NCBI GenBank assembly: GCA_963785235.1
Contig: CAWAUM010000007.1
Span: forward strand, 64,001 to 128,000
Source: an uncultured delta proteobacterium
Lineage (GTDB): Bacteria > Desulfobacterota > Desulfomonilia > UBA1062
Reading direction: 5' to 3'
Length of the DNA stretch: 64,000 bases
The translations under genes were made by a program, and so were the position numbers. Below are positions 36,900 through 58,596 of this stretch, piece by piece (the first letter of the stretch is position 1; each line of letters opens with the position of its first letter). The notes under the pieces are model-generated. The model was not told where the DNA came from. It saw nothing but the letters and a program-made list of their open reading frames with translations, and ran no database searches.

Positions 36900-39777
36900 A
36901 TGCAGTTTGGGCAGAGGGAAACAGATGAAAAGAGCCTGAAAAGACGTCTCCGTTTTGAAGAGATGCTCTCGGAGCTTTCTGCGCGGTTCATGGCAACTAC
37001 GTTCGATCAGGTCGACAGCGAGATCGAAAATGCCTTGAGGCAGATCATGGAATTCTTCCAGGTCGATCTGTGTGCCCTGCTGGAAGTCCACGAGGACAGG
37101 TCCTTTGCCAGAATCTCCCATGCCGTGTACGGCGAAGGCGTTGAGCAGATACCGAAAGACATAAACCTCGTAGAACTGTATCCGTGGACCTACCAGAAAC
37201 TGATGCGGGGGGAGCTTATCAACATCACCCGGATGGAAGATTATCCTGAAGAAGCCCTGATAGACAGGCAATCTAATTTGGCAATGGGTACAATATCCAG
37301 ATTGGCCTTTCCTGTGGCCGTTGACGGCGGCATTTCGAGAATAATCACTATACATCAGAGACACCGGCATCAGGCCTGGCCCGAAGAGTATATCCCCCGG
37401 CTGCGGCTGCTGGGTGAGATCCTTGTCAATGCCCTGGAGCGCAGGCAGGACAGGGTGCACTTGGAGGAACAGCTCAGCCTTTGAGATGCTCCTGGCTGAG
37501 ATCTCGGGGCGTTTTGTCAACCTGAGAGCCGACCAGGTAGACAGCGAAATAGTAGATGCCCAGCGCCGTATCTGTGAATGCCTGGGGCTGGATCTTTCCG
37601 CGCTCTGGCAGTGGTCGATGGAAACTCCCCGCATCCTCAGAATGACTCACATATACCGACCCCTTGGAGGCCCGCCGCTTCCCGAACCCATGTATGCCCA
37701 TGAGCATTTTCCCTGGTGCCAGCAGGAACTGGAGGCAGGCAGGATAGTTATCGTTTCAAGCATGGAGGATGTTCCGGCCGAGGCGGCCCGTGACCAGGAG
37801 GTCTGGCGCCAGCTCGGCATCAAGACCTCGTTGACCTTCCCGCTATCGCTAGGGGGAGGCCGATCATCGGTGCATTGTCCTTCAATGACATGCTGGCCGA
37901 ACGCACCTGGTCGGAACCGATCATTGCAACGTCTTCAACTGGTCGCCCAGATATTCAGCAATGCGCTCGCCCGCAAGCAGACCGAAACCGCGTTGCGTGA
38001 AAGCGAGGCGCGTCTGAGTCTGGCTACTGAAGCCGTGGGGGCAGGCCTGTGGATCATGGATGTCGACACGAAAAAGGTATGGGTTTCGCAAAAGAGCCGG
38101 GAGCTGTTTCATTTTGCCCCGGATGAAGAGATTACCTATGAAAGTTACTTCAGAGTGATCCATCCCGAGGACAGGGACCGGGTCAACCAGGAGGTGCAGC
38201 ACGCACTCCGGTCCGGAGAGCATCTTCTCTGCGATTACCGGATCGTGCTCCCTGATGGAAGCATCAGATGGATTGTGGCCCGCGGACAGCGGTATCTGAA
38301 ATCGACCGGAGAGCCGGATCGCATCATGGGCCTGTCGTTTGACATAACCGAGCGCAAAGGAATGGAGCTGCAGCTGAGCGAGTCACAGACCACGCTCGCT
38401 TCACTGGTCAACTCTACCTCCGATCTGATCTGGTCGGTGGATGCAGAGCGCTTCGGTCTTCTCACCTTCAACCGCGGCCTTACCGAATACTTCTTCAATA
38501 ACCATGGCATTCATACCAAGGTCGGCATGCGTCCGGAAGACCTCCTGCCTGCAGGCTATGCTCAGCAGTGGCAGAAGTTCTATCAACAAGCTCTGGAGAA
38601 GGGATCTTTCACAACAGAGTACCGGGCGTCCGGGGGAAGCCGGGTGCTGCGGCTGAATATCAACAGCCTCAGGGACGGTGATAATATGTTCGGCGTATCG
38701 GTATTCGCCCAGGACATCACCGAGCGCAAGCAGTTGGAGGAGCAGCTCAGAGAACGTCTCAATGAGATCGAGGTGCTCAAACAGCGGCTCGAAAGAGAGA
38801 ATATCTATCTGCGCGAGGAGGTCAGACTCCTGGTTGAGCATACAGACATCGTGGGGCAAAGCCTAGCCATGAAGAGGGTCCTGAGCCAGGCGGAACAGGT
38901 TGCAAAAACAGATGCTACGGTTCTCCTCACGGGGGAAACCGGAACAGGAAAAGAGCTGCTTGCCCGGGCGATCCACAGCATGAGCACCAGGAAAGACCGG
39001 ACCCTTGTAGTGGTCAACTGCGCCTCGTTGCCGCCCACCCTCATCGAGAGCGAACTCTTCGGCCGGGAAAAGGGCGCCTTCACCGGTGCGCTCACCCGGA
39101 TGACCGGGCGTTTCGAGCTTGCCGACGGGTCTACCCTGTTCCTGGACGAGATCGGGGAACTCCCCCTTGACCTGCAGAGCAAACTGCTCAGGGTGCTTGA
39201 ACAGGGGCAGTTCGAACGGCTGGGGTCCAGCAGGACCACCAAGGTCAATGTCCGCATCATTGCCGCCACCAACCGGGACATCGAGCAGGCGGTGAAGGAC
39301 GGCACATTCAGACGGGACCTTTTCTATAGGCTGAATGTGTTTCCCATTGTGATTCCGCCGCTGCGTGAGCGTGCCGGAGATATACCTCTCCTGGTCCGAT
39401 CGATCGTCAGGGAGTTTCAGAAGAGGATGGGGAAAGAGGTAGAAAGCATCCCGAAGAAGACCATGGAGGCCCTGCAATCCTATTCCTGGCCGGGTAACGT
39501 CCGGGAGCTCAGGAATATGATCGAACACGCCATGATCCTGAGCACGGGTAAAACACTGGATGTACACGTGCCCAAGCGTGCACCTTCAGAAACAGACACG
39601 ACCGGCAACCTCCAAGATATGGAGCGGATACATTTGATGACCGTGCTGGAGAAGACCGGCTGGCGCATTTCCGGACAGGGTGGCGCTGCCGAGGTTCTTG
39701 GTCTGAAGAGAACAACCCTCCAGGCGAAGATGAAGAAATTAGGCATCAAGCGTTCCAGCAAGCCAATGCCGCACTAA
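36900..39777 (+). CDS. sigma54-dependent activator, GAF-GAF-PAS-PAS-AAA+-HTH; indel near 37480 and a compensating pair at ~37860-37925
   Basis: Two related GAF starts ([19 protein letters not shown] / [19 protein letters not shown]); PAS IHPEDR, DITERK twice; [53 protein letters not shown]. Confidence 0.92.
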
Positions 39778-39921: not shown

Positions 39922-40176
39922 ATGAAACGTACATGGCAGATACAAGAAGCGAAGAATAAACTGAGCGAGGTAGTTGATGAAGCAGTCCATCATGGACCAC
40001 AGGTTATTACCAAGCGGGGTGTTGAAGTTGCTGTTATGCTATCCTATTGTGAATATCGTAAAATGATCTCCTTGCAGAAGAAGCTCTCCACTTTCTTTCG
40101 CGAATCTCCTCTTGTGGGGGTCGACCTCGATCTCAGTCGAGATAGGACCGGAATGCGTGAGGATGTCTCGCTATGA
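39922..40176 (+). CDS. Phd/YefM-family antitoxin
   Basis: WQIQEAKNKLSEVVDEA..GPQVITKRG; RBS AGGAGG; overlaps the toxin start. Confidence 0.92.
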   Translation: MKRTWQIQEAKNKLSEVVDEAVHHGPQVITKRGVEVAVMLSYCEYRKMISLQKKLSTFFRESPLVGVDLDLSRDRTGMREDVSL

Positions 40177-40776: not shown

Positions 40777-40901
40777 TATATTGGCAGATAATCTCGCTCC
40801 TTCTGCTTTGTCCGTCACACCTTTTTTTATTGAAATCCTCATAACAACAGCGCCTTGACAACATAATCGTCCTCCGCCTTTTTCTTGGCCCGTATCTGGC
40901 A
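40771..40901 (+). promoter_or_regulatory. upstream activating palindrome + sigma54 promoter of the GRE operon
   Basis: TGCCCATATATTGGCA (40771-40786); TGGCCCGTATCTGGCA (40886-40901) has GG and GC at -24/-12 spacing; adjacent sigma54 activator. Confidence 0.75.
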
Positions 40902-41020: not shown

Positions 41021-41359
41021 ATGATCCTCGCAACCATTAGGATGGCGATACCACCCCAAAAGCGAGCTGAGGCATTGAAAATCATCAGATTGATAGCTGA
41101 TCGATGCAGTGACGATACCGGCTGTCTCGGGTTCCACCTCTATGAGGACCTGCAGGAAAAAAACGTCATCATGCTCGAAGAGGTCTGGAAGGCCCAGGAA
41201 GACCTGGACCTTCATCTTCGCTCGGACGAATACCACAACCTGCTCATGGTTCTGGAAATGGCAGTCAAACAGCCCGAGATCAGGTTCGACACCATCTCCA
41301 GTTCCACGGGCATCGAGACCATTGAAAAGGCAAGGAGCAATGCGAGACAAATATTCTGA
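41021..41359 (+). CDS. ABM (antibiotic biosynthesis monooxygenase / YgiN-like) family protein
   Basis: GCLGFHLYED....N...LEEVW....DL..HLRS pattern of dimeric alpha-beta barrel proteins. Confidence 0.8.
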   Translation: MILATIRMAIPPQKRAEALKIIRLIADRCSDDTGCLGFHLYEDLQEKNVIMLEEVWKAQEDLDLHLRSDEYHNLLMVLEMAVKQPEIRFDTISSSTGIETIEKARSNARQIF

Positions 41360-41450: not shown

Positions 41451-42647
41451 ATGGCTAAGGAAACAGAGAAGATTAAAGAGACAACTTTCAAAAACACGAA
41501 ACTGAACCTTGTGAAGCTGGATTGGAAAGAGGTTTACTACACCAACTGTCCGCTGGTGTCTGCCAGCAATGTGGATGAAGGCCTGGGCTTGACCAAGAAG
41601 GAGTTCAAGAAGATCGGCGTGAAGTTTGCCTACATGCGTTCGACCCCTGAAACCGATTGGTATCCCCACTACATTCACAATCAGGAAAATCTTATCCGCT
41701 TCGGCGGTTTGTTTCCGCCCATCGAGGTTCACGCGGACATCCGCCGGACCCGGCTGCTGGGGGTTACGCAGATGCCGGCAGAAGGCGGTGTCATGATGGT
41801 GCGCGCCAAGGACGACATCTACCGGATGGTCGATCTGAAGGGCAAGAAGATCGGCATTTCCAAGAGCATGAACAAGATCAAGAACGACTGGTGGCGCATC
41901 CAGGAGCACCAGGGTATCGAGCTCATGCTCCGGATGAACGGCATGACCATGGACGACATCGAGCTCGTCGAGTTCCCTTACGCGGACGACTGGTATAACG
42001 ATCCGGCGATGATGGTCGCAACCATGGACCTCTCGATTGATCTGTGGCTGAAGCGTGACCACAAGCGCGACTTGGCCTTCCGTCCACTGGAAACCGCACT
42101 GGAAAAGAGGATCATCGATGCGATGTACATGCAAACCAAGCCGCTCCAGCAAGTCTCCGAGGCGACGGGCAAGTTCGCGGCGATCGAGGACCTCTCCCGC
42201 TATCCGGACTGGCGTTTGCAGGTCGCCAACATCCCCGCGGCCATTACGTGCACCGACGTCATGGCCAAGCAGCACCCCGAACTCGCCGTCACGTTCATGA
42301 AAGGCATGATCCGCGCCGGGCGCTGGGCCAACGAGAACAAACGCGCCGCGGCGGAAATCCTCGACCAACAGACCTTCTACAGAGACATCGAGCACACCTA
42401 CCAGGGAATCAGGGACGTGGACTTGGTGCCCAACCTGTCACCACTCAACCTGGCTGCTGTCGAGATCGGCAAGAACTTCATGCTGAGCCACGGCTACATC
42501 AAGAACGACTTCGATGTGCAGAAGTGGGCCGCGCCGGAGTTCCTGGAGAAGGCAGCCAGAGAACTGCTGGAAGAAGAATGGAAGAAAAGAACCACAGCAA
42601 AACTTCCCAAGACGGCTGCGCCGCTTACGGGAGAACGGCTCGGGTAG
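41451..42647 (+). CDS. DszB (aryl-sulfinate desulfinase)-like cytoplasmic protein, SsuA/THI5 periplasmic-binding fold
   Basis: YYTNCPL (Cys33), His73 and Arg83 in RFGG..PP, RTRLLGVT, DLKGKKIGIS, WAAPEFL match recalled DszB motifs; no signal peptide. Confidence 0.78.
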   Translation: MAKETEKIKETTFKNTKLNLVKLDWKEVYYTNCPLVSASNVDEGLGLTKKEFKKIGVKFAYMRSTPETDWYPHYIHNQENLIRFGGLFPPIEVHADIRRTRLLGVTQMPAEGGVMMVRAKDDIYRMVDLKGKKIGISKSMNKIKNDWWRIQEHQGIELMLRMNGMTMDDIELVEFPYADDWYNDPAMMVATMDLSIDLWLKRDHKRDLAFRPLETALEKRIIDAMYMQTKPLQQVSEATGKFAAIEDLSRYPDWRLQVANIPAAITCTDVMAKQHPELAVTFMKGMIRAGRWANENKRAAAEILDQQTFYRDIEHTYQGIRDVDLVPNLSPLNLAAVEIGKNFMLSHGYIKNDFDVQKWAAPEFLEKAARELLEEEWKKRTTAKLPKTAAPLTGERLG

Positions 42648-42752: not shown

Positions 42753-45185
42753 ATGGAAAAGGCAAAGGATGCAAAGAAGATTTCCACAGGCCGCGTCAAG
42801 GCCGACAAAGACCGGATCGACCGGCTGAAAGAACAACTCAGGAGCACCCCTGCCGAGGTTGATTTTGAGCGGATCAGGATCATGGAGGAGGTTTACGCGG
42901 CCACTCAGGGCGACCAGAATATCATGCGTCGAGCCAAGTTCTATGCCACCCTGCTGGAGCGGAAGAAGATCTACATCGACGACAACTGCTTTGTGGGCAG
43001 CATGGCCGGCACCGTCAACGGCATCTACACGTATCCGGAATGGAACATCGATTGGATGAAGGACGATAATACCGTCGAGAAGTGCAAGGATCCGGTGGAC
43101 AAGAAGGCGAACCAGTGGGCACTCGACTACTGGGACAAGCGCGCCCTGAAACCCCGCACCCTGGAGATCTTCGAGAAGAAGTATGGTTTCGATCCGAAAC
43201 CCTGCTATGAGTCCGGCTTTGTCGTCAGTTTCTTTGACTGGCCGGGTGGTGGCGGCAATCTGAACTACCCCCGGATTTACAACCATGGGCTGGCCGCCAT
43301 GATCAAGGAGGTCGAGGAGCGGCAGGCGGCCCTCGACATGCGGCTGCCCAATGCCAGCAAGCTCTACTTCTATGAAGCCAGCCTCATCGTCATGAGGGCC
43401 ATTGTGCGCCTGGCTCATCGCTATGCCGAGCTGGCCCGGGAAATGGCGAAAAAGGAAAAGAATGAAACCCGCAAGGCAGAGCTGATTGCCATCGCCGAAA
43501 CCATGGAACGAGTTCCCGAGCATCCGGCCCGGAACCTGAGAGAGGCCATCCAATGCCACTTCTTCTGTCACATTTGTGCGGAGCTCGAGCAGGTTGGCTG
43601 CGGTTACTCCGAGGCCTATCTGGGCCAGAACCTTGAGCCCTACTATCAACGCGACAAAGCGGCGGGTCTGGTCGATTACGAACAAGCGACGTTCATGTTC
43701 CAGAATCTCGTGATCAAGCTGAACGAGATCGGCTATTACTTTGGAGAGAAGGTCGCCCTGCAGAACTCGGCCGACCTCGGGCAGAGCGTCTCCCTGGGAG
43801 GCTTTACCGAGGATGGGGAGGATGCCACCGCGGAAATGGACTATGTGGTTCTGGATGCATGCAACTATCTCCACCTGCCGCAGCCTCCGCTGACTTGCGT
43901 CTACACGGAGAGGATGAGCGGCAAATTCCTCGAGAAGGTCCTGGATGTCATCGGCACCGGTATCGGCATGCCTCAGTTGGTAAACGGCAATGTGATGATC
44001 AAACGGGCACTCAATCTATTCGGTGACTCCAAAAAGGGCATCACCCTCGAAAAAGCCAGGCGCACCTGCATCGGCGCATGTGTGGGTTCTTACCCCCCCT
44101 ACGAGACCGGTCACCCGGTGGAAGGCCAGCCCAACCTGGGCAAGGTCATCGAGCTGGTGATGAACAATGGCTTCGATCCTCGCACCAAGAAGCAGGTCGG
44201 ACCCAAGACCGGTGATCCCGAGACCTTCAAAACCTTCGAAGAACTCTACGCGGCATTCCAAAAGCAGATCGATTTCAATGAAGAGGTCCTCCGCCGGGGT
44301 GCCTGGATCGCCAGCATGTTGTGCGCCGACTTCCTCCCGGTTCCTTGGCGCTCGCTCCTGACCGGGGGCTGCATTGAAACGGGCACCGAGGTGTGGAACG
44401 GCGGGGCCAATTACTACACCGTTGCCCAGATTGTGGTGGGGGGCATCGACGCGGCCAACTGTCTCATGGCGGTGAAGAAACTGGTCTACGACGACAAGAA
44501 GATCACCATGGCCGAACTCAAGAAAGCCCTGGCCGCCAACTGGGAGGGGGAATACGAGAAGATTCGGAAGCTGTGTTACGAAGCTCCCAAGCACGGCAAC
44601 GACATCCCTGAAATGAACAGGATGGCGTACAGGGTGTACGAAAGCATCTTCAAGGCTTTCAACAATGTTGACGGCGGCGGCAACTACCTCAGCAAAGACA
44701 TCAAATCAGCGCCGGATGCCTATACCAAGAGCATCCACAACCTGATGGGTATGGTGACCGGGGCTCTGCCCAACGGCAAGAGAGCCGGAGTGGCACTCAC
44801 CGATGGAAGTCTGTCGGCCATGCCGGGAACCGATGTCAGCGGTCCTACCGCGTTGGTGATGTCTGCGGCGAAGGCTCAGGATGCCATCAAGTACACCGCA
44901 ACCCACATGAACATGAAACTCCCGCCTGATCAGCTGAAGACACGCAAGGGCCGGGATAATGTGCTGCGTCTGGTCAAAACCCTGTTTGATAACGATGGCT
45001 ATCACATCCAGTTCAACGTCCTGGATACCAACATCCTCAGGGATGCGCAGAAGCACCCGGAAAACTACCGTGACCTCGTGGTCCGGGTAGCCGGTTTCAG
45101 TGCCTTCTTCACCGCACTGGCTAAGGGCGTACAGGACGAGGTCATTGAGCGCACTTTGCAGTCGTTTGACGGTCAGATGTGCTGA
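42753..45185 (+). CDS. glycyl radical enzyme (PFL-like family), substrate unknown
   Basis: C-terminal HIQFNV...AQKHPENYRDLVVRVAGFS (Gly781); Cys loop CIGACVG (Cys443); APKHGND; GALPNGK; activase nearby. Confidence 0.95.
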   Translation: MEKAKDAKKISTGRVKADKDRIDRLKEQLRSTPAEVDFERIRIMEEVYAATQGDQNIMRRAKFYATLLERKKIYIDDNCFVGSMAGTVNGIYTYPEWNIDWMKDDNTVEKCKDPVDKKANQWALDYWDKRALKPRTLEIFEKKYGFDPKPCYESGFVVSFFDWPGGGGNLNYPRIYNHGLAAMIKEVEERQAALDMRLPNASKLYFYEASLIVMRAIVRLAHRYAELAREMAKKEKNETRKAELIAIAETMERVPEHPARNLREAIQCHFFCHICAELEQVGCGYSEAYLGQNLEPYYQRDKAAGLVDYEQATFMFQNLVIKLNEIGYYFGEKVALQNSADLGQSVSLGGFTEDGEDATAEMDYVVLDACNYLHLPQPPLTCVYTERMSGKFLEKVLDVIGTGIGMPQLVNGNVMIKRALNLFGDSKKGITLEKARRTCIGACVGSYPPYETGHPVEGQPNLGKVIELVMNNGFDPRTKKQVGPKTGDPETFKTFEELYAAFQKQIDFNEEVLRRGAWIASMLCADFLPVPWRSLLTGGCIETGTEVWNGGANYYTVAQIVVGGIDAANCLMAVKKLVYDDKKITMAELKKALAANWEGEYEKIRKLCYEAPKHGNDIPEMNRMAYRVYESIFKAFNNVDGGGNYLSKDIKSAPDAYTKSIHNLMGMVTGALPNGKRAGVALTDGSLSAMPGTDVSGPTALVMSAAKAQDAIKYTATHMNMKLPPDQLKTRKGRDNVLRLVKTLFDNDGYHIQFNVLDTNILRDAQKHPENYRDLVVRVAGFSAFFTALAKGVQDEVIERTLQSFDGQMC

Positions 45186-45232: not shown

Positions 45233-45314
45233 AAGTTCCAAGATGAGTACCAAGGCTCTGCAGGGCGCGAGGCTATTGATGCCTATACAGGAAAATTCAC
45301 ACAGGAGGATTATT

Positions 45315-46490
45315 ATGAGTAAAGAAATAGGTCATGCCAGTTTTCAACGACGCATTGCCATCAATGTGGGTGCCGGCTACGTGCCCGGTATAAATGCTGT
45401 GATAATGGGCGCAAGCCTTGCTGCGAACAAACTGGGATGGGAGATAGTCGGCATCATGGACGGGTTTGAGGGGCTGTTGCACCGGCCTAGCTACCCCAAC
45501 GGCGGGCTGGTGTCACTCAGCCCGCAAATGATTGAGAACCTGGATCCGTCTGCCGGGGGAATCCTGGGCCAAGCGTTGCGGATCGATCCGTTTCATGTCC
45601 GTCGCGTAAATGAAGACGACATGGTAGAAGAAGTCGACGTATCCGATGAACTGATTAGAATACTTCAGGACGAGCAGATCGACGCATTGATTTCAGTTGT
45701 TGGGGGTCAAGGATTAAGTATTCTTTATAAGCTCCATCGTAAAGGGCTCAATACGGTTTGCATCCCCAGATCGATTGAGAACGACATCGCTGCCACAGCG
45801 GTCTCCTTCGGGTTCAACAGCGCCCTGAGTTTTACTATCGAAATGCTGGATCGGGCTCTTCAGGCGGCCCGGGCAGCCCGCAAAATCGCGGTAGTGGAGG
45901 TCTTGGGAGAACAGGCCGGTTGGATTGCATTACAGGCCGGCATTGCAGTTTGTGCCGATGTAGTGCTGATTCCCGAAGTTCCCTGCGATCTGAATGCGGT
46001 TGCATCCAGATTGAAAGAAAAGATGCGATTCAGAAATCATTACGGACTTGTGGTGGTGGCCGAAGGGGCGAAGTTTGTCGATAATACGCAAAGCCAGGCG
46101 GATCCCTCCTCCCTGAAAGCTACTCTCTCGCCGCTGGCAACGGGTGAGGCAAGTGAACATGTCATTTCGCAATCAGGCCAGGCCGCCGCGACAGTGGCAA
46201 CCAGGTTGCAGTTACTGATCGCCGAGGAAATCTATCCGCTGGTAATTGGTCCCTGGGTCAGGGGTGGTACCCCCACTGCTGTCGACCGGCAACTGGGGAT
46301 GGCCTACGGCGCCGGAGCCATTCAGGCGCTGAAAGCCGGGAAAAACGGCGCAATGGTTGCTTTTAATCCACCAGCCATCGAATTTCTGCCTTTGGCAGAA
46401 GCGATCAATAAAGTCAGAACGGTGCCCACAGACAGCCTGTTCGTGAAAATCGCCCAATCGCTCGGCATCTTTCTAGGGAGGGAATTATGA
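45315..46490 (+). CDS. 6-phosphofructokinase-fold protein with non-canonical catalytic motifs
   Basis: [74 protein letters not shown]; RBS AGGAGG. Confidence 0.85.
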
Positions 46491-47450
46491 AAAAACAAAA
46501 CATCAACCCCTCCGATATAACAGGCACAGTGCTGAATATCCAACGATATTGCAGCCACGACGGTCCGGGCATCCGGACAACGGTTTTTCTCAAGGGCTGC
46601 TCTTTGCGCTGCAAATGGTGCGGCAATCCCGAAAGCATTAGCCTGAAGCCGGAAATGTCCTACGACTCCAGGAAGTGCACCGGCAAGAAGTGCGGCCTCT
46701 GCCTGAAGCCGCCGTTTCCTGAAGGCGCCTTCTATTTTGTGGAGGGGGATGATGACCAAAGTAAAAGTCAACTGGCACCTGGCCATGGACATAAATAACG
46801 AACTGGTTTCGCTCTGCCCGACCGGTGCGCTCGAAATGTTCGGCAAACGGATGACCGTCAACGAGGTGCTCGACGAGGTGGAGAAGGATGCCTCCATCTA
46901 CCGCAGTACCGGTGGCGGCATGACGATAAGCGGCGGTGAAGTCATGCTGCAACCCGACTTTGCGGCAGCTTTGCTGCAGGAAGCACACAATCGCGGCCTC
47001 AATACGGCTATAGAAACAGCCTGCAATGCGCCATGGTCCTTCCTTGAAAAAGTACTTCCCCACGTGGATACGATGCTTCACGACAACAAACTGATGAATT
47101 CGGAACGGCACAAAAAGTGGACCGGCGTAGGCAATGAAAGAATTCTGGCGAACTTCAAAAAAGCCTACGAAACGTTCCCCCATGTGGAGTTTATTACCCG
47201 CACACCGCTGATTCCCGGCGTAAACGCCGATGAAGAGCACGTCCGGGCCGTGCTGGCATTCATCAAGCCATATAAAAACGTGATCGACTATGAGCTCTTG
47301 CCCTATCACCGCTTTGGTCTGGGCAAGTATGAACTGTTGGGAGAGGTGTATGAACTGGATGATTACAAAACGCCGTCTGCCGACCTGGTCGCGCACCTGC
47401 AGGCCATCATCGACGAAGCCTTTGGCCGCAGCGGGCCGCAAACAAAATAG
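46487..47450 (+). CDS. glycyl-radical enzyme activase (radical SAM); split by one apparent indel near 46755
   Basis: [27 protein letters not shown]; [37 protein letters not shown]. Confidence 0.93.
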
Positions 47451-47463
47451 AAAGGAAACAATC

Positions 47464-48720
47464 ATGGCCAGACAGAAAGAGAAAAAAAGCATGAAAACTG
47501 AAGGCCGCCAAACACCTCCGAAGAAGCCGGGAGCCGGGAACGGTTCGGGCCGGACAGATGACATTTACGAGCGCCTGGCGGACGCGCTGGACGCGCTTCC
47601 GAGTGGCTTTCCCAGGACGAAATCCGGGGTGGAAATGAAACTGATCAAGATGGCGTTTACGCCCGAGGAGGTAGCCCTTGCCGGTCAGTTGACCCGCTTT
47701 CCCGAGACCGCTGCCGAGATCGCCAAACGGGTCGGCATGGATGAGGCTGACGTAACCGTGTTGTGCGAGAGCTTGATCCCCAGGCGCCTGGTACGTCTCG
47801 ACTCGCCCGGGTATGACATGGCCGGTCAAGATCAGGGTGATGGGGCGAAGAAGTACCGGCTGGGCATGTTCCTGGTTGGCTGGTATGAAGCCAATATGCG
47901 GCTGCTGGGTAAGGAATTTGCCGAGCTCTTCGAGCAATATGTTATTGAAGGCGGCGGTGAAAGAATACTTGCTCCTCGGCCTGGGGTTCTTGGTGTTGTT
48001 CCCGTTCGGGGGTCACTATCGCCAGAACAGATCAAAGTGATGGAACCCCATCTTGATATCGACGCGCATTTCAAACGGCACGAACGATTTGTTGTGTTTG
48101 GCTGCGTATGTAAAAGGGAGCAGGAATTATTGCATGGCCACAGCTGCGATATGCCGATGAAACGCTGCGGTTTTGTAGGCGTCCCACCCCAGACGCCACT
48201 TTCGGAAAACGTGCTTGACCGGGAAGAGGCGGACAAGCTTCTTCGTGAACTGGAGGACATGGGACACGTTCACCTCGCGGCCTATGGATACGTCATGGGC
48301 GCGGAGACTCCTCAGTTTGTCGGAGGGTGTAACTGCTGCGGCTGTTGTTGCGGGGTCCTTCACAGCCAGAAACTCTCCGGCATTTCGGAAGCGGCACAGC
48401 GTTCGAACTACCGCGCCGTCATTGATTCGGAAAAATGCATTTCCTGCGGTCTGTGCATCAAGCGTTGCCCGGTGGACGCCATCTTCGAGGGCCCGAAGCG
48501 CTTGCCCACAGGGCCTCTCTGTGCGGCCGTGGAATTGGAGCCCGGCAAGTCCGAGGTGGACCGGGCCAAGTGCATCGGCTGCGGCGTGTGCGTGATCAAA
48601 TGCCCGACGAATGCGATCGAACTTGTGCCGGTATCGAAAGAAGAATGGTTCCATACTCCTGCCAGCATGGCGGAATGGGAAGAGATGCGCCTTGCGTTTC
48701 TGGCAGCGGAAAAGAAGTAA
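47464..48720 (+). CDS. Cys-rich 4Fe-4S protein (N-terminal winged-helix-like region, CNCCGCCC motif, 2x[4Fe-4S] C-terminus)
   Basis: IYERLADALDALPSGFP, CVCK, GCNCCGCCCGVL, CISCGLCIKRCP, CIGCGVCVIKCP. Confidence 0.85.
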   Translation: MARQKEKKSMKTEGRQTPPKKPGAGNGSGRTDDIYERLADALDALPSGFPRTKSGVEMKLIKMAFTPEEVALAGQLTRFPETAAEIAKRVGMDEADVTVLCESLIPRRLVRLDSPGYDMAGQDQGDGAKKYRLGMFLVGWYEANMRLLGKEFAELFEQYVIEGGGERILAPRPGVLGVVPVRGSLSPEQIKVMEPHLDIDAHFKRHERFVVFGCVCKREQELLHGHSCDMPMKRCGFVGVPPQTPLSENVLDREEADKLLRELEDMGHVHLAAYGYVMGAETPQFVGGCNCCGCCCGVLHSQKLSGISEAAQRSNYRAVIDSEKCISCGLCIKRCPVDAIFEGPKRLPTGPLCAAVELEPGKSEVDRAKCIGCGVCVIKCPTNAIELVPVSKEEWFHTPASMAEWEEMRLAFLAAEKK

Positions 48721-48787
48721 AGCCTGGGCAAACAGGCGGGATGGAAGAACGGCTTCGTTTCGCGAAGGGAATAGGAGGAGAAGCAAG

Positions 48788-50089
48788 ATGAACACAACCG
48801 ACTTGATTACGGCGGAAGTACTGGCCGGGCGGCTCAAGATGGCCGCCGAAGGCATCAAGCAGAAGCCCGGCTTAATGAAGTCCGCCATAGGCTATATGGA
48901 ACTGGTTTATAAGTACGTGGAGCGGATCGTGACGGCCAAAGAAAAGGGCAAATATGTGGTTACCCATGGCACCCAGCAGCCCCTCGAAATTTACGAAGCT
49001 ATGGACATCGTGTGCCTCTTCAACGAGTTCTGGGGTGTCATCTCGGATGTCGTGAACACGGATTCCGTCCCCGCGGCCATGAATATTTCGGCTTCGACCG
49101 GCACACCGCAGGAGGTCTGCTCCTTCTTCCGGAACATGGACGGCCTGCTGCATGCCGGGAAGTGGCCGCATACGGACATGTTTGTCTACGCCACCTCCTC
49201 GTGCGATAACGTTAAGGCGTTCCACACGCTGGGCCGGCGATACGGCATCCCCAGTTTCGGCATGGAGCGGCCCTATTACCCGTTCACACCCCATGCGATG
49301 GAACACTGGAAGAACGAGCACAAGCGTTTGATCGCCTTCCTGGAAGAGCAGACGGGGAAGAGGATGGACTATGACCGTCTCAATGAGACGTTACGCCTCT
49401 CTTACCGTCTTACCGAGATCGCCTGCGAGATCGACAAGCTGGTAGCCCATGTCCCAACTCCCATGTCCCCCGAATGCTTTGGGGGAGTACTGCTGGCGAT
49501 CCGCCTGATGTGCGGGACCCAGGAGGCTGTGGACTACCTGGAATCGCTGAAGGCGGAACTCGAGGAACGGGTGTCCAAGGGCATCGCCGCCGTCGAGCCG
49601 GAACGCTTCCGGGTGATGTGGAGCAGTTTCACCCCGTTCTGGGACCCGGGAATCATGGCCTTCATGCAGGAGAAGTACGGAGCGGTCTCGGTGTGCGAGG
49701 TGCTGCAGCGCTGGCGCGGGGAGGCGAACTGGATGCTGGATCCGGATGATCCGTTGGGCAACCTCGCTTACAAAACTCAGGTCGCACCCGGAAACTGTCA
49801 ATACTCGCCCTCCTTAGATTGGGCCGGGGAAGTCGTCGCGCAGGCCCGCAAATACAAGCCGGACGTGGCGATCTTCAACAACAACCGGGGCTGCAAGCAG
49901 GCTGCGGGCTTGGAACCAATCATCAGGGACGAGCTGCTGCGTCAATGCGGCGTGCCGACCCTCACGCTTGCCGTGGATGTGATTGATGCAACTTTTACCA
50001 GCCGGGCAGAGGTCGAAAGGCAGTTGGACGGCTTTTTTGAAATGATCGAGGGAAGCGAAGCTTACCAGGAAAGGAGGGCAAACGCATGA
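48788..50089 (+). CDS. 2-hydroxyacyl-CoA dehydratase / benzoyl-CoA reductase catalytic subunit (HgdA/FldB/BcrB-like)
   Basis: QEVCSF, TSSCD, IAFLEEQTGKRMDYDRL, ELEERV..G, DDPL..LA, NRGCK, GVPTL....D.ID; RBS AGGAGG. Confidence 0.85.
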   Translation: MNTTDLITAEVLAGRLKMAAEGIKQKPGLMKSAIGYMELVYKYVERIVTAKEKGKYVVTHGTQQPLEIYEAMDIVCLFNEFWGVISDVVNTDSVPAAMNISASTGTPQEVCSFFRNMDGLLHAGKWPHTDMFVYATSSCDNVKAFHTLGRRYGIPSFGMERPYYPFTPHAMEHWKNEHKRLIAFLEEQTGKRMDYDRLNETLRLSYRLTEIACEIDKLVAHVPTPMSPECFGGVLLAIRLMCGTQEAVDYLESLKAELEERVSKGIAAVEPERFRVMWSSFTPFWDPGIMAFMQEKYGAVSVCEVLQRWRGEANWMLDPDDPLGNLAYKTQVAPGNCQYSPSLDWAGEVVAQARKYKPDVAIFNNNRGCKQAAGLEPIIRDELLRQCGVPTLTLAVDVIDATFTSRAEVERQLDGFFEMIEGSEAYQERRANA

Positions 50090-51231
50090 ACCCCCAACTG
50101 CAAGTTCTGAACGAAATGCGGAAAGCGACCTCTCCATTCCCGGAGAGCGTAACCGTCAAGGACTGGAAAGCCTCTGGCCGAAAGGTGATCGGCTGTGTCA
50201 ACCCCTACGTCCCGGAGGAGATCATCCACGCGGCCGGGATGCTTCCATTCAAGATCACCGGTGACAACGAGCCGGTCGAGATGCAGGGGGCCGAGGCCTA
50301 CATCCTCTCCAATACCTGCTCCTACATTCGCACCTGCTGGCAGCTGCAGCTCGACGGCAAGTACGGTTTCCTGGACGGCCTGGTCTTCTCCAACATGTGC
50401 GACCAGGATAAGCGGCTGTACAGCGTGTGGGAGTACTATAAGAAGCTTCCCTACATGGACATCCTCTACGCGCCGCGCAAGCGCGACGAGGAGGCTGTCA
50501 AGCTGTACCTGGCCGATCTCGAGGACTTCAGGGACAGGTTCTCGCTGTACCGGCTGAGCAGGATCACCGACCGGGACGTCGCGGACGCCATCCGCGTCTA
50601 CAACCGGGGACGTGAGCTCATGCATCGTCTCTACGAACTGCGCAAGCGTGATCGCCCACCTGTGACAGGTGCCGAGGCCCTGGAAGTAAGCAAGGCTGCC
50701 GCACGCCTGCCGCGTGAGCGTTTCAACGAGCTGATGGAGCAACTGCTTGACGAGATCCAGCGCACCGGGCGCGAGATCAAGAAGGCCAGGCGCCTGATGG
50801 TCATCGGCAACGATATTCACAACACCAACCAGGTCGCCGCGTTCGAGGAAATGGACGCGCTGGTCGTCGTGGACGAGATGAATTGCGGCATCCGGCAAGC
50901 CCTGGGCCAGGTGGACACCAAGATGCCGCCGATGGAGGCTCTGGCCCGCTACTACGTGATGGGCCGTCCGGTCGACATGCACAACTGGAATTCCGACGGG
51001 CGACTCGCGTTCATTGGCCAGATGGTTGAACAATACAGGGTTGACGGGATTGTGTCCGAGATCGTTCGCTTCTGCACCTACAACGGCTGGGACAAGTTCG
51101 ATCTCAAGAAGCAGATGGAACAGCGCGGCATTCCCATCCTGGATATCGACCTCGAGTACGGCCATCCGGCTGGAGCGCAGGTGAAGACCCGCGCCGAGGC
51201 GTTCATGGAGATGCTGGAAAGCCGAGCCTGA
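50086..51231 (+). CDS. 2-hydroxyacyl-CoA dehydratase / benzoyl-CoA reductase catalytic subunit (HgdB/FldC/BcrC-like)
   Basis: KVIGC...YVPEEIIHAAGMLP, NTCSY, SNMCD, RFC, GIPIL.IDLEY, QVKTRAEAFMEML. Confidence 0.88.
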   Translation: MNPQLQVLNEMRKATSPFPESVTVKDWKASGRKVIGCVNPYVPEEIIHAAGMLPFKITGDNEPVEMQGAEAYILSNTCSYIRTCWQLQLDGKYGFLDGLVFSNMCDQDKRLYSVWEYYKKLPYMDILYAPRKRDEEAVKLYLADLEDFRDRFSLYRLSRITDRDVADAIRVYNRGRELMHRLYELRKRDRPPVTGAEALEVSKAAARLPRERFNELMEQLLDEIQRTGREIKKARRLMVIGNDIHNTNQVAAFEEMDALVVVDEMNCGIRQALGQVDTKMPPMEALARYYVMGRPVDMHNWNSDGRLAFIGQMVEQYRVDGIVSEIVRFCTYNGWDKFDLKKQMEQRGIPILDIDLEYGHPAGAQVKTRAEAFMEMLESRA

Positions 51232-51295: not shown

Positions 51296-51512
51296 ATGGC
51301 AAAGTTAGACGTGAAATTCATTGCCGGAAATGAGGCCCGCCAAGTCAGAAGTGATTCGGGACAAGTGCATCGGCTGCGGGGTCTGCGTGACGGGTTGCCC
51401 AGAGGAGGCGATCGAACTTGTGCCTGTATCGAAAGAAGAATGGTTCCATACTCCCGCCAGCATGGCGGAATGGGAAGAGTTGCGACTGCAGAATATGGCA
51501 TCGAAAAAGTAA
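51296..51512 (+). CDS. small ferredoxin-like paralog of the C-terminus of 47464-48720; probable indel near 51317
   Basis: RBS AAGGAG + ATG at 51296; frame 51321-51512 gives KSEVIRDKCIGCGVCVTGCP..AIELVPVSKEEWFHTPASMAEWEE. Confidence 0.65.
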
Positions 51513-51597
51513 CGAGGTACCCAAAAGCCACGGTTGTGTAATGCCGTTGCTTCGGGAAGGGAAAAGGGGGACCACATACCATGTCAAGGAGAAACAT

Positions 51598-53284
51598 ATG
51601 AAAGTAATAATTGTCGGCGGAGTGGCGGGTGGCGCGTCGTGTGCGGCGCGCCTGCGGAGATTGGATGAAAAGGCGGAAATACTCATGGTGGAACGCGGGC
51701 CGTATGTCTCCTACGCGAACTGCGGGCTTCCCTACCATATCAGCGGCGTGATCGAAAAAGAGGCATGCCTCCTGGTGGCCACGGAAGCGACGTTCCGTGA
51801 GCAGTTCGCAGTGGATTGCCGCACGAACTGCGAGGCGGTCGGGATTGATGCGAAAAAGAAGACCGTGGAGCTGAAGAACCACGCCACCGGCGAGGTGTCC
51901 ACCGAGCACTACGACAAGCTCGTGCTTTCTCCCGGGTCGGCGCCGATCCGTCCGCCACTGCCGGGTATCGACCTCCCGGGGATCTTTTCGGTGCGGACCG
52001 TGCCGGACGCCCGAGACATACGCGCCTGGATTGGACGCAACGACGTGCCGGACCATTCGGAAACAGGCTACCAGGCCGTGACGCCAGCCAAGCGCGCGGT
52101 GGTGATCGGCGGCGGATTCATCGGACTTGAGATGGCCGAGAACCTGGTGCACCTCGGGCTCGAGGTCACCGTGGTTGAGATGCTCGATCAGGTCATGCCC
52201 CCGCTTGATCCGGAAATGGCACGCCTGGTCGAGTCCCACCTGGAGAAGCATGGTGTCCGCCTGGCGCTGGGCGACGCGGTGGCCGGCTTCAGGCAGGCGG
52301 AGCATGGTTCGCTCGAGGTGCTCACGAAATCAGGGAAAACGCATCCGGCGGACATCGTGATCATGGCCATCGGTGTGCGTCCTGAGACTGAGCTGGCAAA
52401 GATGGCCGCCATCGAGATCGGGGAGCGCGGGGGGATCCGCGTGGACGAGCATATGCGCACGAGCGACCCGGATATTTTCGCCGTGGGAGATGCCGTCGAG
52501 GTAAGGGATTTCGTTACAGGCCAGTGGTCGCTCATCCCGCTTGCAGGGCCTGCGAACCGTCAGGGCCGCATCGCGGCTGATGTGATCGTCGGGCGCGACT
52601 CGCGTTACCGGGGCACGCAGGGCACTTCCATCTGTCTCGTCTTCGATGCAGCGGTGGCCTCGACCGGAGTCAGTGAAAAGATCCTTATCAGACTGGGCGA
52701 CACGGATTACGAAAAGATCTATCTCTACCCGAACTCGCACGCAGGGTATTACCCGGGCGCCAAGCTGCTCGCAATAAAAGTCCTGTTCCGGAAATCCGAC
52801 GGCCGTCTCCTGGGCGCGCAGGTGCTCGGCCAGGACGGCGTTACCAAGCGGATCGATTCCTTTGCCATGGCTATCCAGATGGGATGCACCATTTACGACC
52901 TGGAAGAGGCCGAGCTGAGCTACGCGCCCCCGTTCGGCAGCGCCAAGGACCCGGTCAACTTCGCCGGGATGGTGGCCGCTAATATCTTGCGCGGCGACAT
53001 GCCGGTGTGCCCACTGGGATGCGGCGCAGGGAGGGTTCCTCCTCGATGTGCGCAATCCGCCCGAACTGGCCGTTGAGCAGGCGCCGGGTGTGGTCAACAT
53101 ACCGCTGCCGGAGCTCCGTGCACGCCTGGGCGAGCTGCCCCGCGAGCGCGAGATTTTCGTGATCTGCCGCTCGGCCCAGCGCGCCTACTATGCGACGCGC
53201 ATCCTGCTGCAGAACGGGTTCAAGGCCCGCAACATCTCCGGCGGCATGCTGGTGCGTTCGCACCTGGCGGTGGGATGGAAATAA
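51598..53284 (+). CDS. CoA-disulfide/persulfide reductase with C-terminal rhodanese domain (CoADR-RHD/Npsr-like); indel near 53010
   Basis: GGVAGGAS, SYANCGLPY, GGGFIGLEMAE, FAVGDA, LAGPANRQG, HAGYYPG, YAPPFGSAKDP; rhodanese CRSAQR in ORF 53048-53284. Confidence 0.9.
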
Positions 53285-53307
53285 ATAGTGAACGCAAGGA
53301 GCACAAT

Positions 53308-53817
53308 ATGACTGAACAAAATCTTCCCAAAGGAAAACAGACGGTGCTGGGGCTCTATGTGACGGCAAAGGAGGCCTACGAGAAGTGGAAGGCCGAGCCG
53401 GACAGGGTGATGATCCTCGACGTACGCACACCGGAAGAGTACCTCTTCATCGGCCACCCGGCCATGGCCTGGAAGATCCCCATCGCGGCCCAGGAGTATG
53501 AGTGGGACGCCGGCAAGGGGAAGTTCCCCATGAAGCTCCTCACCGATTTCGTTGAGCGGGTGAGCTCCGTGGCCGGGCCAGATGACACGATCCTCGTCAC
53601 GTGTCGCTCCGGCGGCCGCAGCGCCATTGCCGCCAACCTGCTTGCCCAGGCCGGGTACAAGAAGGTCTACAACATCATCGACGGCGTGGAAGGGGACGCG
53701 GTTGAAGATCCTGACAGCGTCTTCCTGGGTCAGCGCCTGAAGAACGGATGGAAGAACTCGGGATGTCCGTGGACATACAAGCTCACGCCCGACAGACTGC
53801 TGCTTCCAAAAGCATGA
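53308..53817 (+). CDS. single-domain rhodanese / sulfurtransferase
   Basis: ILDVRTPEEY..IGH, TCRSGGRS, YNIIDGVEG, GWKNSG.PW. Confidence 0.9.
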   Translation: MTEQNLPKGKQTVLGLYVTAKEAYEKWKAEPDRVMILDVRTPEEYLFIGHPAMAWKIPIAAQEYEWDAGKGKFPMKLLTDFVERVSSVAGPDDTILVTCRSGGRSAIAANLLAQAGYKKVYNIIDGVEGDAVEDPDSVFLGQRLKNGWKNSGCPWTYKLTPDRLLLPKA

Positions 53818-53941
53818 TAGGCGGGCTTGCAGGAGGGACAACAACTTGAAAGGAAAGGGACCATGAGCGATGTAAGGCAGTTCCTTCAGCCCACAGGCCA
53901 TTTAACAGCAATGCATTTTATAATTTGAAAGGAAAAAGATT

Positions 53942-54816
53942 ATGGACATTATGACTTGGTTCAACATCACAGTGGTCGTGTTTACCGTGGCTAATCTGAT
54001 GGCCGGGGGCCTTGAGTGCGATCTGAAAGAAGCGGTCAAGTTGTTGAAAAGCCCCACGCTCTTCGTGCCGACCCTTTTTTGGGGCTGGGTGGCCGGGCCG
54101 GCCCTTGCCTGGCTGATCATCCAAGTGCTTCCGCTGTCGGCGGGACATGCCGCCGGGCTGATGTTGTGCAGCTTGGCGCCCATTGCGCCGTTCCTGCCGC
54201 TGGCGGCGATGAAGGCCCGTGGCGACATGACCTTCACCGGAGCCTACATCCTGCTGGGGACGGTCGTTACCGTCTTGTTGATGCCGCTGATGGCACCTCT
54301 GCTGATCAAGGGGCTGACCTTGAGCACCTGGCCGCTCGCGAAGCCGCTCATCATATTGGTGCTGATTCCTTTGCTGCTTGGCATTGTCATCCGGTTTTAC
54401 AAGCCGGCAGTGGCCGCCAAGATATTTAAACCGGTCAAGAAAACCGGCGGCATCTTCCTGCTGCTCTGCCTGGGGACGTGCCTGTGGATCTACGGCATGC
54501 AAATGCTCGGCACGGTGGGCAGCTTTGCCACGGCCGCTTGGGTCATCTTCATGGTCGTGATGGCCGTGCTGCCGTATCTGATTGGCTTCGGCATGAAACA
54601 GAATCAGCGCAGCGTCATGGCAATCGGCCAGAGCTCGCGGAATATTTCGGCCGGGTTCGTGGCGTTCTTTGGTATTACCAACCCGCCCGAGGGGATGTTC
54701 CTGATGGTTGTGCTGGTGGTTCCGCTGCACGTCATCATCGGGCTCTTATCGGTGCCGCCCATATTCGCCAGGCTGGCCGGCAAGACCGTGAAACCGCTGA
54801 GGAAGTTGCGGCATGA
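53942..54816 (+). CDS. bile acid:sodium symporter (BASS/SBF) family transporter; indel near 54790 hides the stop
   Basis: Multi-TM; MAGGLE, SLAPIAPFLP, LIPLLLG, GQSSRNIS; adding one base restores VETAEEVAA-stop at 54816. Confidence 0.8.
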
Positions 54817-54929
54817 ACATCATCCGGAAGATCTCCAGCCTGCTGCAGCGCGATTTTCCTGGAGTGAGGCACACAAGCATTACGATGAATCTCGAAAAGC
54901 ACAGAAGCTCAGAAATATGGAGGTATGCA

Positions 54930-55757
54930 ATGAGTACGTTCAAATCGACAATGGTCCTGATGGTGTTCCTGGCAACGGCTCTGGCGGCATGGGCGCAGGA
55001 GCCTGCCACGGAAGGGGCAAGCGCGCAGCAGGATCAGGCGGCGGAACTGGCGAAAAAGGCGCAGAATCCGGTAGCGGACCTGATGATCATGCCGCTGCAG
55101 TACAACATCGATTTCGGCATCGGCCCTGCGGACGCGTCCCAGCAGACGCTGAAATTCATGCCGGTCATTCCGTTTTCGCTGGGCACGGAGTGGAACCTGA
55201 TCACCCGCACCATCATACCATGGATCGATGCGGAGTCGCCGGTGGAAGGCGGCGAGGACTATTCCGGTCTGGGCGACATCCAGCAGAGCTTCTTCTTCAC
55301 GCCCAAAGAGCCGGTGGGTGGATGGATCATGGGAGCGGGACCGATCATCCAGTACCCGTCGGCCACCGAAGATGCGCTCGGCAGCGAGAAGTGGGGCGCA
55401 GGGCCCTCGTTCATTGTGCTGAAGCAGAAGAACGGATGGACCATTGGCATGCTCGCGAACCACGTCTGGTCGTTCGCCGGGAATGACGACCGGGAAAATG
55501 TCAACGTGACGTTCCTGCAGCCGTTCCTCGCCAAGACAACGAAGACCTATACGACGTTGTCCGTGAACACGGAGTCGATCTATGACTGGAAAAACAGCCA
55601 GTGGACGGTCCCCATCAACGTCTCCCTCGGACAGATGATCAAGGTCGGGAAGCTACCCATCAGTCTGGAGCTCGGCTACCGCTATTACGCGGAAAAGCCC
55701 GACGGCGGCCCGGATTGGGGGCTGCGCGCCTTCGTCAAGTTCCTGTTCCCGAAATAG
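54930..55757 (+). CDS. outer-membrane beta-barrel channel (AELAKKAQNPVADL family, MetA-pathway/CoxB-like)
   Basis: Signal peptide, PVIPFSL..EWNLITRTIIP, GLGDIQQSFFF, LGSEKWGAGP, WTVPIN, ends FLFPK; RBS GGAGG. Confidence 0.8.
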   Translation: MSTFKSTMVLMVFLATALAAWAQEPATEGASAQQDQAAELAKKAQNPVADLMIMPLQYNIDFGIGPADASQQTLKFMPVIPFSLGTEWNLITRTIIPWIDAESPVEGGEDYSGLGDIQQSFFFTPKEPVGGWIMGAGPIIQYPSATEDALGSEKWGAGPSFIVLKQKNGWTIGMLANHVWSFAGNDDRENVNVTFLQPFLAKTTKTYTTLSVNTESIYDWKNSQWTVPINVSLGQMIKVGKLPISLELGYRYYAEKPDGGPDWGLRAFVKFLFPK

Positions 55758-58512: not shown

Positions 58513-58596
58513 CGAAACTTCAAAACCCATCGCTCTGCCAGGTCAACACACGGGTCTGAAGGCGATTACCCTAGAACGTAAAAAGGAGGTTACCCT

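Follow-up and report, generated by a model that had tools for sequence, protein, structure and literature searches.

The PFL-like division of the superfamily of glycyl radical enzymes (GREs) carries a C-terminal glycine fingerprint, RVxG[FWY] (PMC13450708). According to the sections of a GRE review available to us (PMC13450708), a CXE motif in the loop bearing the catalytic cysteine (the Cys loop) is kept by all GRE 1,2-eliminases and isomerases, two cysteines (CC) on this loop are found in PFL and TdcE only, and many GRE clades remain unannotated; a C-x-G loop is not among the classes in those sections. In the eliminase HypD, the available part of the mutagenesis study (PMC7077986) gives His160, Asp278 and Glu436 as each essential. 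Here, we describe a GRE of a different kind, encoded at positions 42753..45185 (+) of a 64,000-nucleotide stretch (hereafter the window) of DNA from an uncultured delta proteobacterium (assembly GCA_963785235.1, contig CAWAUM010000007.1, positions 64,001 to 128,000). We propose that it acts on an anionic organosulfur compound by a radical C-S reaction independent of a base and that a degenerate phosphofructokinase (PFK)-like protein serves as partner of its activase, a whole picture to which we give a probability of about 40%.

The open reading frame (ORF) starts with ATG and encodes 810 amino acids, with a Pfam PFL-like domain over residues 20–638 (E 4.5e-145) and a Gly_radical domain (PF01228) over residues 686–787 (E 3.6e-27). 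The sequence VVRVAGFSA, containing Gly781, satisfies the superfamily fingerprint within the latter domain. The Cys loop reads TCIGACVGSY and holds Cys439, Cys443 and Gly445; in an HMMER alignment to HypD (6VXC), Cys443 falls on the catalytic Cys of the HypD GCVE motif and Gly445 on its Glu. An alignment of 140 sequences, drawn from the family and from distant GREs, has eight invariant columns, of which Cys443 is one. The AF2 model of the protein is confident (pLDDT 95.3, pTM 0.94) and superposes in Foldseek on HypD, GD, PD, HpzG and CutC with a TM of about 0.9 (0.91 to HypD, GD, PD and CutC) at 29%–31% identity, with both the 10-stranded barrel and the catalytic Cys on its loop in place. A cognate radical-SAM activase, frameshifted in the window, is encoded nearby at 46487–47450. 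Because of the Pfam domains, the invariant Cys443, the quality of the model and its match to known structures, the product is almost certainly a genuine GRE of an undescribed family. Pfam, the translation and the HypD alignment thus bear out an initial annotation, made from the DNA letters, that had named Gly781 in RVAGF and Cys443 in the Cys loop.

The fold of this GRE is ordinary; the active site is extraordinary. HypD is the nearest characterized enzyme by sequence (E 1.3e-119, about 31% identity to 6VXC) and the best match by fold, and we mapped its residues (construct numbering is native + 20) through an HMMER alignment, so that the correspondences below rest on sequence alignments at about 30% identity. 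In length, Gly loop, position of the catalytic Cys and possession of its own radical-SAM activase, the window GRE resembles the PFL2-type 1,2-eliminases HypD, GD, PD, CutC, HpyG and HpzG. In contrast, HypD His160, Asp278 and the Glu436 of CXE correspond to Gly168, Cys283 and Gly445, such that the three eliminase acid/base positions are occupied by Gly, Cys and Gly. HypD Asp339/Phe340 fall in a gap following Gly343, Tyr450 corresponds to Gln459 and the substrate-binding Thr645 to Lys659; Ser334 has its counterpart in Ser339. All residues replacing HypD active-site positions are invariant across 22 aligned family members, as are G441-A442-C443-V444-G445 of the loop and E451, H454 and E457 just downstream of it. 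The second loop cysteine that the initial annotation had pointed out, Cys439, is present in this protein but lies outside both the invariant and the ≥90% columns of the 22-member alignment and is not a family feature; on the alignment, the conserved second cysteine of the family is Cys283.

Taken together, Cys283, Lys659, Arg533, Ser339, Gln459 and the Gly-rich loop would form a roomy, positively charged pocket with a second thiol, the distance between Cys283 and Cys443 being deduced from the same mapping. Among representatives clustered at 50% identity, Arg533 and Cys283 co-occur in the six nearest clusters only, and Lys659 is present in the three nearest. Because Glu, His and Asp are all replaced, a base-assisted ketyl radical would not be expected, and we think it probable that the enzyme does not follow an eliminase-type mechanism.

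The other described classes fit no better. Twelve NCBIfam models match the protein and none of them reaches its cut-off: HypD (NF043068) scores 487.9 bits against a cut-off of 1100, the PFL2/3 subfamily 472 against 678, IAD 420.5 against 1100, the DHPS enzyme 413 against 1000, CutC 395 against 1050, HPAD 367.3 against 1150 and PFL (TIGR01255) 86.8 against 994. The loop GACVG has no CC pair as in PFL, and all 22 members show C443-V-G445 in place of the CXE of eliminases and isomerases. High identity to a characterized GRE was looked for and not found in this comparison, with no equivalog cut-off reached and HypD at about 31%; these scores and the available sections of PMC13450708 uphold the statement that the Cys loop matches no characterized GRE class. 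The two decarboxylase hallmarks, a Cys-loop Glu and an HPAD small subunit, are found neither in the GRE nor among its neighbors, as the initial annotation had held for the small subunit, and two other accessory genes, for the PFK-like protein and an Fe-S protein, adjoin instead. In PMC13450708, as far as its available sections go, HPAD and IAD keep the Cys-loop Glu that the window GRE lacks, and PAD has Gln484 among its essential residues and no acidic residue assigned, a point of likeness to the Glu-less enzyme described here.

The C-S lyases IslA/IseG and HpsG/HpfG share a sulfur-related gene context with this locus. The GRE does not show their combination of CXE with an Arg/Gln/Arg triad. 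In an approximate pairwise alignment to a DHPS-type GRE (28% identity), the β1 Arg/Gln are replaced by the run Gly165–Gly168 and the β8 Arg adjoins Lys659, which places a basic residue near the β8 Arg position of IslA, IseG, HpsG and HpfG. The X-succinate synthases BSS and MASS are Glu-less GREs like the one in the window. They rank low here (BSS E 2.3e-78, MASS E 1.3e-84) and score lower by fold, and the neighboring genes differ: no β or γ subunit gene is present at the locus, and the context is one of sulfur, not of hydrocarbons or fumarate. In the available sections of PMC13450708, BSS and MASS have accessory subunits that bind Fe-S or Fe.

The family is widespread. A word-indexed search gave 120 homologs at 76%–91% identity among the matches listed, and a genome collection gave 59 loci at 64%–97% identity. 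By locus labels, at least nine phyla are represented (Acidobacteriota, Bacteroidota, Verrucomicrobiota, Chloroflexota, Actinomycetota, Pseudomonadota, Desulfobacterota-type, Ignavibacteriota and Calditrichota), the labels including Bacteroidales, Hydrogenedentes, Actinomycetes, Calditrichia, Chloroflexia, Ignavibacteria, delta proteobacteria, Verrucomicrobiota, Acidobacteriota, Methylobacter, Burkholderiales and the isolate Flavihumibacter profundi (KCTC 62290; locus L052, in which the frames are intact). A FastTree phylogeny built from 41 intact copies mixes the phyla, has very short terminal branches (median 0.032) and, for instance, pairs a Desulfobacteraceae copy with an Ignavibacteria copy as sisters (96* support). 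Such a tree fits repeated horizontal transfer under strong constraint. The family is clearly mobile, and metagenomes from soil, lakes and sediment commonly contain it. Beyond the family, identity drops sharply in an exhaustive search of the 50%-identity representatives, to 50%, 46% and then ≤41%.

Among 136 full-length GRE representatives, 64 have a CxE loop and 72 do not, six of the latter being CxG. The loop described as atypical in the initial annotation is absent from the studied classes, but loops lacking Glu are not rare; by these counts, a Glu-less Cys loop is common in uncharted GRE space and absent from every studied class. In a tree of representatives (FastTree only, midpoint root), a starred clade of four rows unites the window GRE with P0124, P0125 and P0127, the latter three all carrying a CVS loop and Cys283; it is nested in a larger starred clade of 14 rows whose loops are mixed. 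This 14-row clade and an IAD-like clade lie within a 19-row set (support 92) in which the order of branching between them is not settled. The likeness to the arylacetate decarboxylases (IAD, HPAD, PAD and AAD) named in the initial annotation is only partial: it is seen in the tree, whereas the best score and fold match are to HypD and the eliminases. When the 61 nearest 50%-cluster representatives were compared with NCBIfam, a single one, a HypD, passed an equivalog cut-off, so relatives give the family no function; none of the 13 nearest has an NCBIfam match at E ≤ 1e-220. Our literature search found no description of the GRE family or of a PFK-like activase partner. In the nearest sister family (47%–49% identical), the activase gene immediately follows that of the GRE and a PFK-like gene is absent; the loci of this sister family contain TRAP transporter genes, a rhodanese, an Fe-S protein and a sigma-54 activator whose C-terminal part is 63%–66% identical to that of the window.

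In the window, the GRE gene is followed by a gene for a degenerate PFK-like protein (pseudo-PFK; 45243..46490, +; Pfam PFK E 2.7e-60), the true start of which is probably near 45315, as in the locus L006. GRE, PFK-like protein and activase occur together in 41/41 long loci (those with at least 16 kb; a gene was counted when tblastn gave ≥30% identity over ≥40% of the query). The pseudo-PFK lies below every NCBIfam PFK cut-off. In PFKs, the GGD and GGDGS motifs serve nucleotide and Mg binding, and MGR and the His of GHxQRGG bind fructose-6-phosphate. Across 33 intact copies of the pseudo-PFK, these motifs have become AG[YF], GG[RKQ]GL, [QL]GE and GPWVRGG, respectively; TIDND retains its acidic pair and QRGG its Arg, and the motif set of a functional PFK is not found. 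By comparison, MGR is intact in the genome's own PFK (contig C10), as are the His of QRGG and the second Asp of TIDND; the other motifs of that PFK, GGGD and GGEDT, are likewise non-canonical. No counterpart of the pseudo-PFK, or of the Fe-S protein of the locus, accompanies HypD and the other eliminases.

The pseudo-PFK gene is directly upstream of the activase in all 57 loci that hold the GRE and the activase N terminus, its end lying −3 to 85 nt from the activase start. This adjacency persists in one locus in which an Fe-S gene separates the GRE and PFK-like genes; many Bacteroidales loci have a second PFK-like paralog, followed by a second Fe-S protein. Within the phylum of the window, a pseudo-PFK profile reaches ≥555 bits in only 4 of 301 genomes, and in 26 weaker loci that we inspected (245–324 bits) no activase adjoins. 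In two of the four genomes, a pseudo-PFK 59%–63% identical to that of the window, with the same degenerate motifs, and an activase (63%) follow a different GRE, which is 28% identical to the window GRE, has the loop GCCE and an SDR gene after it, and passes the DHPS-enzyme NCBIfam cut-off (1014.5 against 1000). One such locus (L099, G290:C14:50000-68000) runs, over 6208–14915, through the DHPS-type GRE (GCCE), SDR, pseudo-PFK, activase, a CMD-family protein, a GH63 remnant, a Zn-dependent alcohol dehydrogenase (Zn-ADH) and a transposase, and its activase has the full two-cluster ferredoxin insert. Because the pseudo-PFK also accompanies a DHPS-type GRE and is absent from the sister GRE family, it goes with a type of activase and not with one GRE chemistry. 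We rejected a role as a sulfofructose or sugar kinase, given that both nucleotide/Mg motifs are lost and that the protein accompanies the activase of two unrelated types of GRE.

We predicted the complex of the L006 activase and pseudo-PFK with family alignments. The pair gives an ipSAE of 0.52 (0.52, 0.54 and 0.48 in separate runs), as compared with 0.02 for the best control; at least 46% of contacts are common to the runs, the partner pLDDT is ≥82, and the verdict of the tool is ‘weak support’. Among 80 solved complexes, 58 reach that ipSAE mark, as do 2 of 110 mismatched pairs; those that reach it at 0.60 or under are only 7 of the 80, together with both mismatches. We consider it somewhat more probable than otherwise that the pseudo-PFK binds the activase. 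An accessory protein of this kind for radical-SAM activases is not described in the available sections of PMC13450708. The stronger proposal, that a catalytically dead PFK has been recruited as an obligatory GRE-activase subunit, is unlikely when taken jointly with a base-free C-S class of GRE.

The activase itself is read in two frames in the window (46487–46798 and 46737–47450, within 46487..47450, +; assigned by NCBIfam and by comparison with L006), the first ending at a stop at 46798, with one extra base near 46756 (gaCCaaag). Its N-terminal piece scores best with the DHPS-enzyme activase model of NCBIfam. Taken at face value, the split would mean that the system is dead in this genome, which we regard as very unlikely. 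The closest relative, L006, with a GRE 97%–99% identical, has an intact activase of 323 amino acids (L006:4216-5187), and contigs from three metagenome runs (≥90% likeness), which come from relatives and not from the source sample, are without one base at 46754–46756. In a search of public runs, none covered as much as half of the words in the activase stretch, the best match being 0.44. An RNA run also has contigs on this stretch; contigs from an RNA library do not show transcription. EF-G, GspD and AsmA in the window are likewise split into two or three overlapping ORFs (18506–20555, 23730–25986 and 30919–34739), and many long-read metagenome-assembled genome loci of the GRE family show similar splits, which look like indel errors of long-read assembly. 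Further, the GRE and PFK-like frames are intact and about six other activase-like genes are present in the genome. We therefore hold it very probable that the frameshift is an assembly error. The 15 intact orthologs (L006 and 14 others) retain CX3CX2C, and their ferredoxin-like insert has only four conserved Cys, which would be enough for one auxiliary cluster, not two. In L049, L050, L052 and L053 (Chloroflexia, Flavihumibacter), a gene for MetK (SAM synthetase) lies just 3′ of the activase.

Genes with links to sulfur surround this core. Upstream of the GRE, a cytoplasmic protein of 398 amino acids with a DszB-like (desulfinase) fold and no signal peptide seen is encoded at 41451..42647 (+; 23/41 long loci); the DszB structures 2DE2/2DE3 are its only PDB matches (E 1.2e-12). 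The available part of PMC6100217 names Cys27, His60 and Arg70, the latter within an RXGG motif, as the catalytic residues of DszB. In HMMER alignments, DszB His60 pairs with His73, and its RXGG motif, which includes Arg70 and Gly73, with R83-F-G85-G86. Outside the printed alignments, Cys33 stands at the expected distance, where DszB has S25-x-C27, and T31-N32-C33, within a TNCP motif, is invariant in 11 homologs. The equivalents of His60, Arg70 and Gly73, by alignment, and a Thr-x-Cys, by motif, thus appear to be kept. Set against this, identity to DszB is about 25% over partial alignments, and the protein occurs without DszA or DszC, in an anaerobe and with a rhodanese and a CoA-disulfide-reductase-like (CoADR-like) flavoprotein. 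An AF2 model from 11 sequences (pLDDT 55.7) was too poor to use.

Downstream of the activase, an Fe-S protein (47539..48720, +; 23/41 long loci) combines a weak winged-helix-like N terminus, a Cys run CNCCGCCCG and a 2×[4Fe-4S] ferredoxin domain; the Protein Atlas returned only unnamed 4Fe-4S clusters for it. The CoADR-like flavoprotein (51418..53076, +; Pyr_redox_2 E 1.9e-67; 22/41) scores 460 bits against TIGR03385 (cut-off 579), and copies in some loci carry a fused rhodanese. A separate rhodanese (53263..53814, +; 13/41) is 73% identical by tblastn to one on a Rhizobium plasmid, and the ORF at 53188–53901 (−) is its antisense shadow. A BASS/SBF-family anion transporter follows at 53942..55486 (+; SBF E 2.6e-16; 21/41), and SulP occurs in 9/41 long loci.

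The sulfur genes also occur without a GRE. On Rhizobium leguminosarum plasmid NZ_CP030763.1 (394000–428948; L060, L102), a DszB-like copy 69% identical to that of the window occurs with no GRE. This island comprises 2-hydroxyacyl-CoA dehydratase (HGD)-like α (68%) and β (78%), DszB-like protein, two acyl-CoA-dehydratase activases, BASS, two rhodaneses and SulP, then GH63 (83%), GH13, glucose 1-dehydrogenase and an FAD oxidoreductase. The plasmid of this pure-culture strain encodes oxygen-sensitive-type HGD/benzoyl-CoA reductase (BCR)-like proteins with two ATPase activators, and the genes of the island are 68%–83% identical to those of the window. Because the island has the DszB-like set without a GRE, the DszB-like/rhodanese/transporter set is a mobile module of its own, one that accompanies a GRE system, an ATP-driven HGD/BCR-type system or, in this window, both.

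These observations can be combined into a mechanism. By homology, the radical-SAM activase installs a radical on Gly781, which serves as radical store, and this generates the working thiyl radical on Cys443; the pseudo-PFK, as the predicted complex suggests, would act as a non-kinase partner of the activase. With no Glu, His or Asp, Glu-assisted ketyl elimination should be impossible, leaving a radical reaction that needs no general base. We favor C-S cleavage by β-scission, or a Kolbe-like loss of SOx, on what is probably a sulfonate or sulfinate. In β-scission, a sulfite-type or thiyl-type radical would leave and then take a hydrogen atom from a Cys; in the oxidative variant, a sulfinate or carboxylate would lose SO2 or CO2 after one-electron oxidation. 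The substrate may be held by Lys659, Arg533 and the Gly-rich β1 loop, and Cys283 may donate hydrogen or accept sulfur. Sulfinate, sulfite or persulfide products could then be processed by the DszB-like protein, rhodanese and CoADR-like flavoprotein, and BASS and SulP could move the anions. The substrate is proposed to be anionic and organosulfur because of the pocket residues, the sulfur genes and the activase module held in common with the DHPS enzyme; an organosulfur substrate as such has, in our estimate, an even chance. More narrowly, a base-free, C-S-cleaving GRE with a second active-site Cys that desulfonates sulfoquinovose or a derived sulfonate, jointly with a dead-PFK activase subunit, is improbable. 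The new GRE chemistry suggested in the initial annotation is likewise a proposal, drawn from the missing residues and the gene context.

Several observations weigh against the proposed C-S chemistry and its activase partner. The sulfonate-binding Arg/Gln/Arg triad of IslA and HpsG is not kept in the GRE by pairwise alignment. Roughly half of the long loci lack the sulfur genes, and co-location of these genes with the GRE may reflect a mobile island common to both and not one pathway. The GH63 and Zn-ADH neighbors (8/41) could point to a sugar substrate. The nearest sister GRE family is without a pseudo-PFK, which is therefore not needed by such GREs as such; the complex score lies in a band for which the tool warns that predictions fail more often than they succeed, except where the pairing was already likely; and the activase is frameshifted in this genome.

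Two other chemistries have to be weighed. The enzyme could be a reductase-type GRE in which Cys443 and Cys283 form a redox pair as in ribonucleotide reductases, converting, for example, a sulfonate to a sulfinate for cleavage by the DszB-like protein, with the cysteines re-reduced via the Fe-S protein, the CoADR-like flavoprotein or both. The invariant second Cys at a catalytic position and the sulfinate that a DszB-like protein would need are consistent with this, as are the Fe-S protein with its Cys run and the CoADR-like protein in 23/41 and 22/41 long loci; in Rhizobium, moreover, the DszB-like module stands with an ATP-driven reductase-type pair (HGD-like with two activases) in place of a GRE. 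However, nearly half of the long loci lack these two redox proteins, the proximity of Cys443 and Cys283 is deduced from sequence, and no PFL-like GRE reductase is among the classes in the available sections of PMC13450708, and we judge a reductase unlikely. No more likely is a decarboxylase-type GRE, Kolbe-like or acting by hydrogen-atom transfer on a carboxylate such as an arylacetate, with the sulfur genes as unrelated island neighbors. The grouping of the 14-row clade with the IAD-like clade in the 19-row set, their mutual branching unsettled, speaks for it together with the IAD and HPAD model scores of 420 and 367 bits, and Lys659 and Arg533 could hold a carboxylate; PAD, for which the available sections of PMC13450708 give an essential Gln484 and identify no required acidic residue, sets a precedent, and the TRAP transporter of the sister family is typical for organic acids. 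Both scores are nevertheless far below their cut-offs (1100 and 1150), HypD and the eliminases score and superpose better, an HPAD-type small subunit is missing, and sulfur genes are a recurrent feature of about half of the loci and also of the sister family.

Less probable still is an eliminase or isomerase acting on a sugar-derived substrate whose own phosphate, carboxylate or amine is the base and which the PFK-like protein binds or delivers: the GH63-like and Zn-ADH genes of this window, which occur in 8/41 long loci and also next to the DHPS-type GRE, the retained TIDND acidic residues and QRGG Arg, and the sugar-phosphate isomerases YbiW and PflD in the available sections of PMC13450708 agree with it, but YbiW, PflD and HplG all keep CXE in that source, the PFK-like protein follows the activase and not the GRE type, and GH63 and Zn-ADH are absent from 33/41 long loci.

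The remaining features of the window lie on both sides of this cluster. A sigma-54-dependent activator with PAS domains (37414..39777, +; Sigma54_activat E 6.5e-72, PAS_3, HTH_8; 13/41 long loci) is the likely regulator. Between it and its probable target operon, a Phd/YefM antitoxin and PIN (VapC-like) toxin pair is inserted at 39922–40592. A candidate sigma-54-like promoter, TGGCCCGTATCTGGCA (GG-N10-GC; 40886..40901, +), was found by eye and has two mismatches to the consensus; a one-mismatch sigma-54 pattern has no match upstream of the operon, and its 4 matches in the window compare with 4.85 expected. An ABM-domain protein follows at 41021..41359 (+; 7/41 long loci), identified by tblastn with the ABM protein (Pfam ABM) of L018 at 45% identity. 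Between the Fe-S protein and the CoADR-like flavoprotein, a pair of the 2-hydroxyacyl-CoA dehydratase/benzoyl-CoA reductase/double-cubane-like type is encoded at 48611..51231 (+; HGD-D E 1.9e-55 and 7.6e-79; 1/41 long loci); all its NCBIfam matches are below cut-off, and its members are 68% and 78% identical to the Rhizobium plasmid pair beside the DszB-like gene. The genome (G000, 3.9 Mb) has, with contigs C1, C7, C9, C12 and C13 as the places noted, about nine GRE genes, about seven activase-like genes and many HGD/BCR-like pairs with ATPase activators, and is that of an unusually radical-enzyme-rich anaerobe. Finally, a GH63-like glycosidase and a glucose-dehydrogenase-like Zn-ADH (55783..59643, +; each in 8/41 long loci) are loosely linked to the cassette and are followed on the + strand by a MIP channel; both also occur beside the DHPS-type GRE with pseudo-PFK, in two other genomes, and in the Rhizobium island. 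A second GH63-like copy (59%–78% identical) lies outside the window at G000 C7:143547-146289, about 21 kb downstream of the first.

Pairing with a pseudo-PFK could ease work with activases that are insoluble or inactive alone, a bottleneck named in the available sections of PMC13450708. GREs carry out chemically hard anaerobic reactions, and newly assigned classes have each opened a pathway, from choline to trimethylamine, hydroxyproline, isethionate and anhydroglucitol. The family described here is highly conserved, yet without the catalytic residues of its relatives, and, once its substrate is assigned, the anaerobic cycle of sulfur or carbon would probably gain a step. If the desulfonation proposal were true, many bacteria of soil, lake and sediment would gain an oxygen-independent desulfonation of sulfoquinovose or a derived sulfonate.

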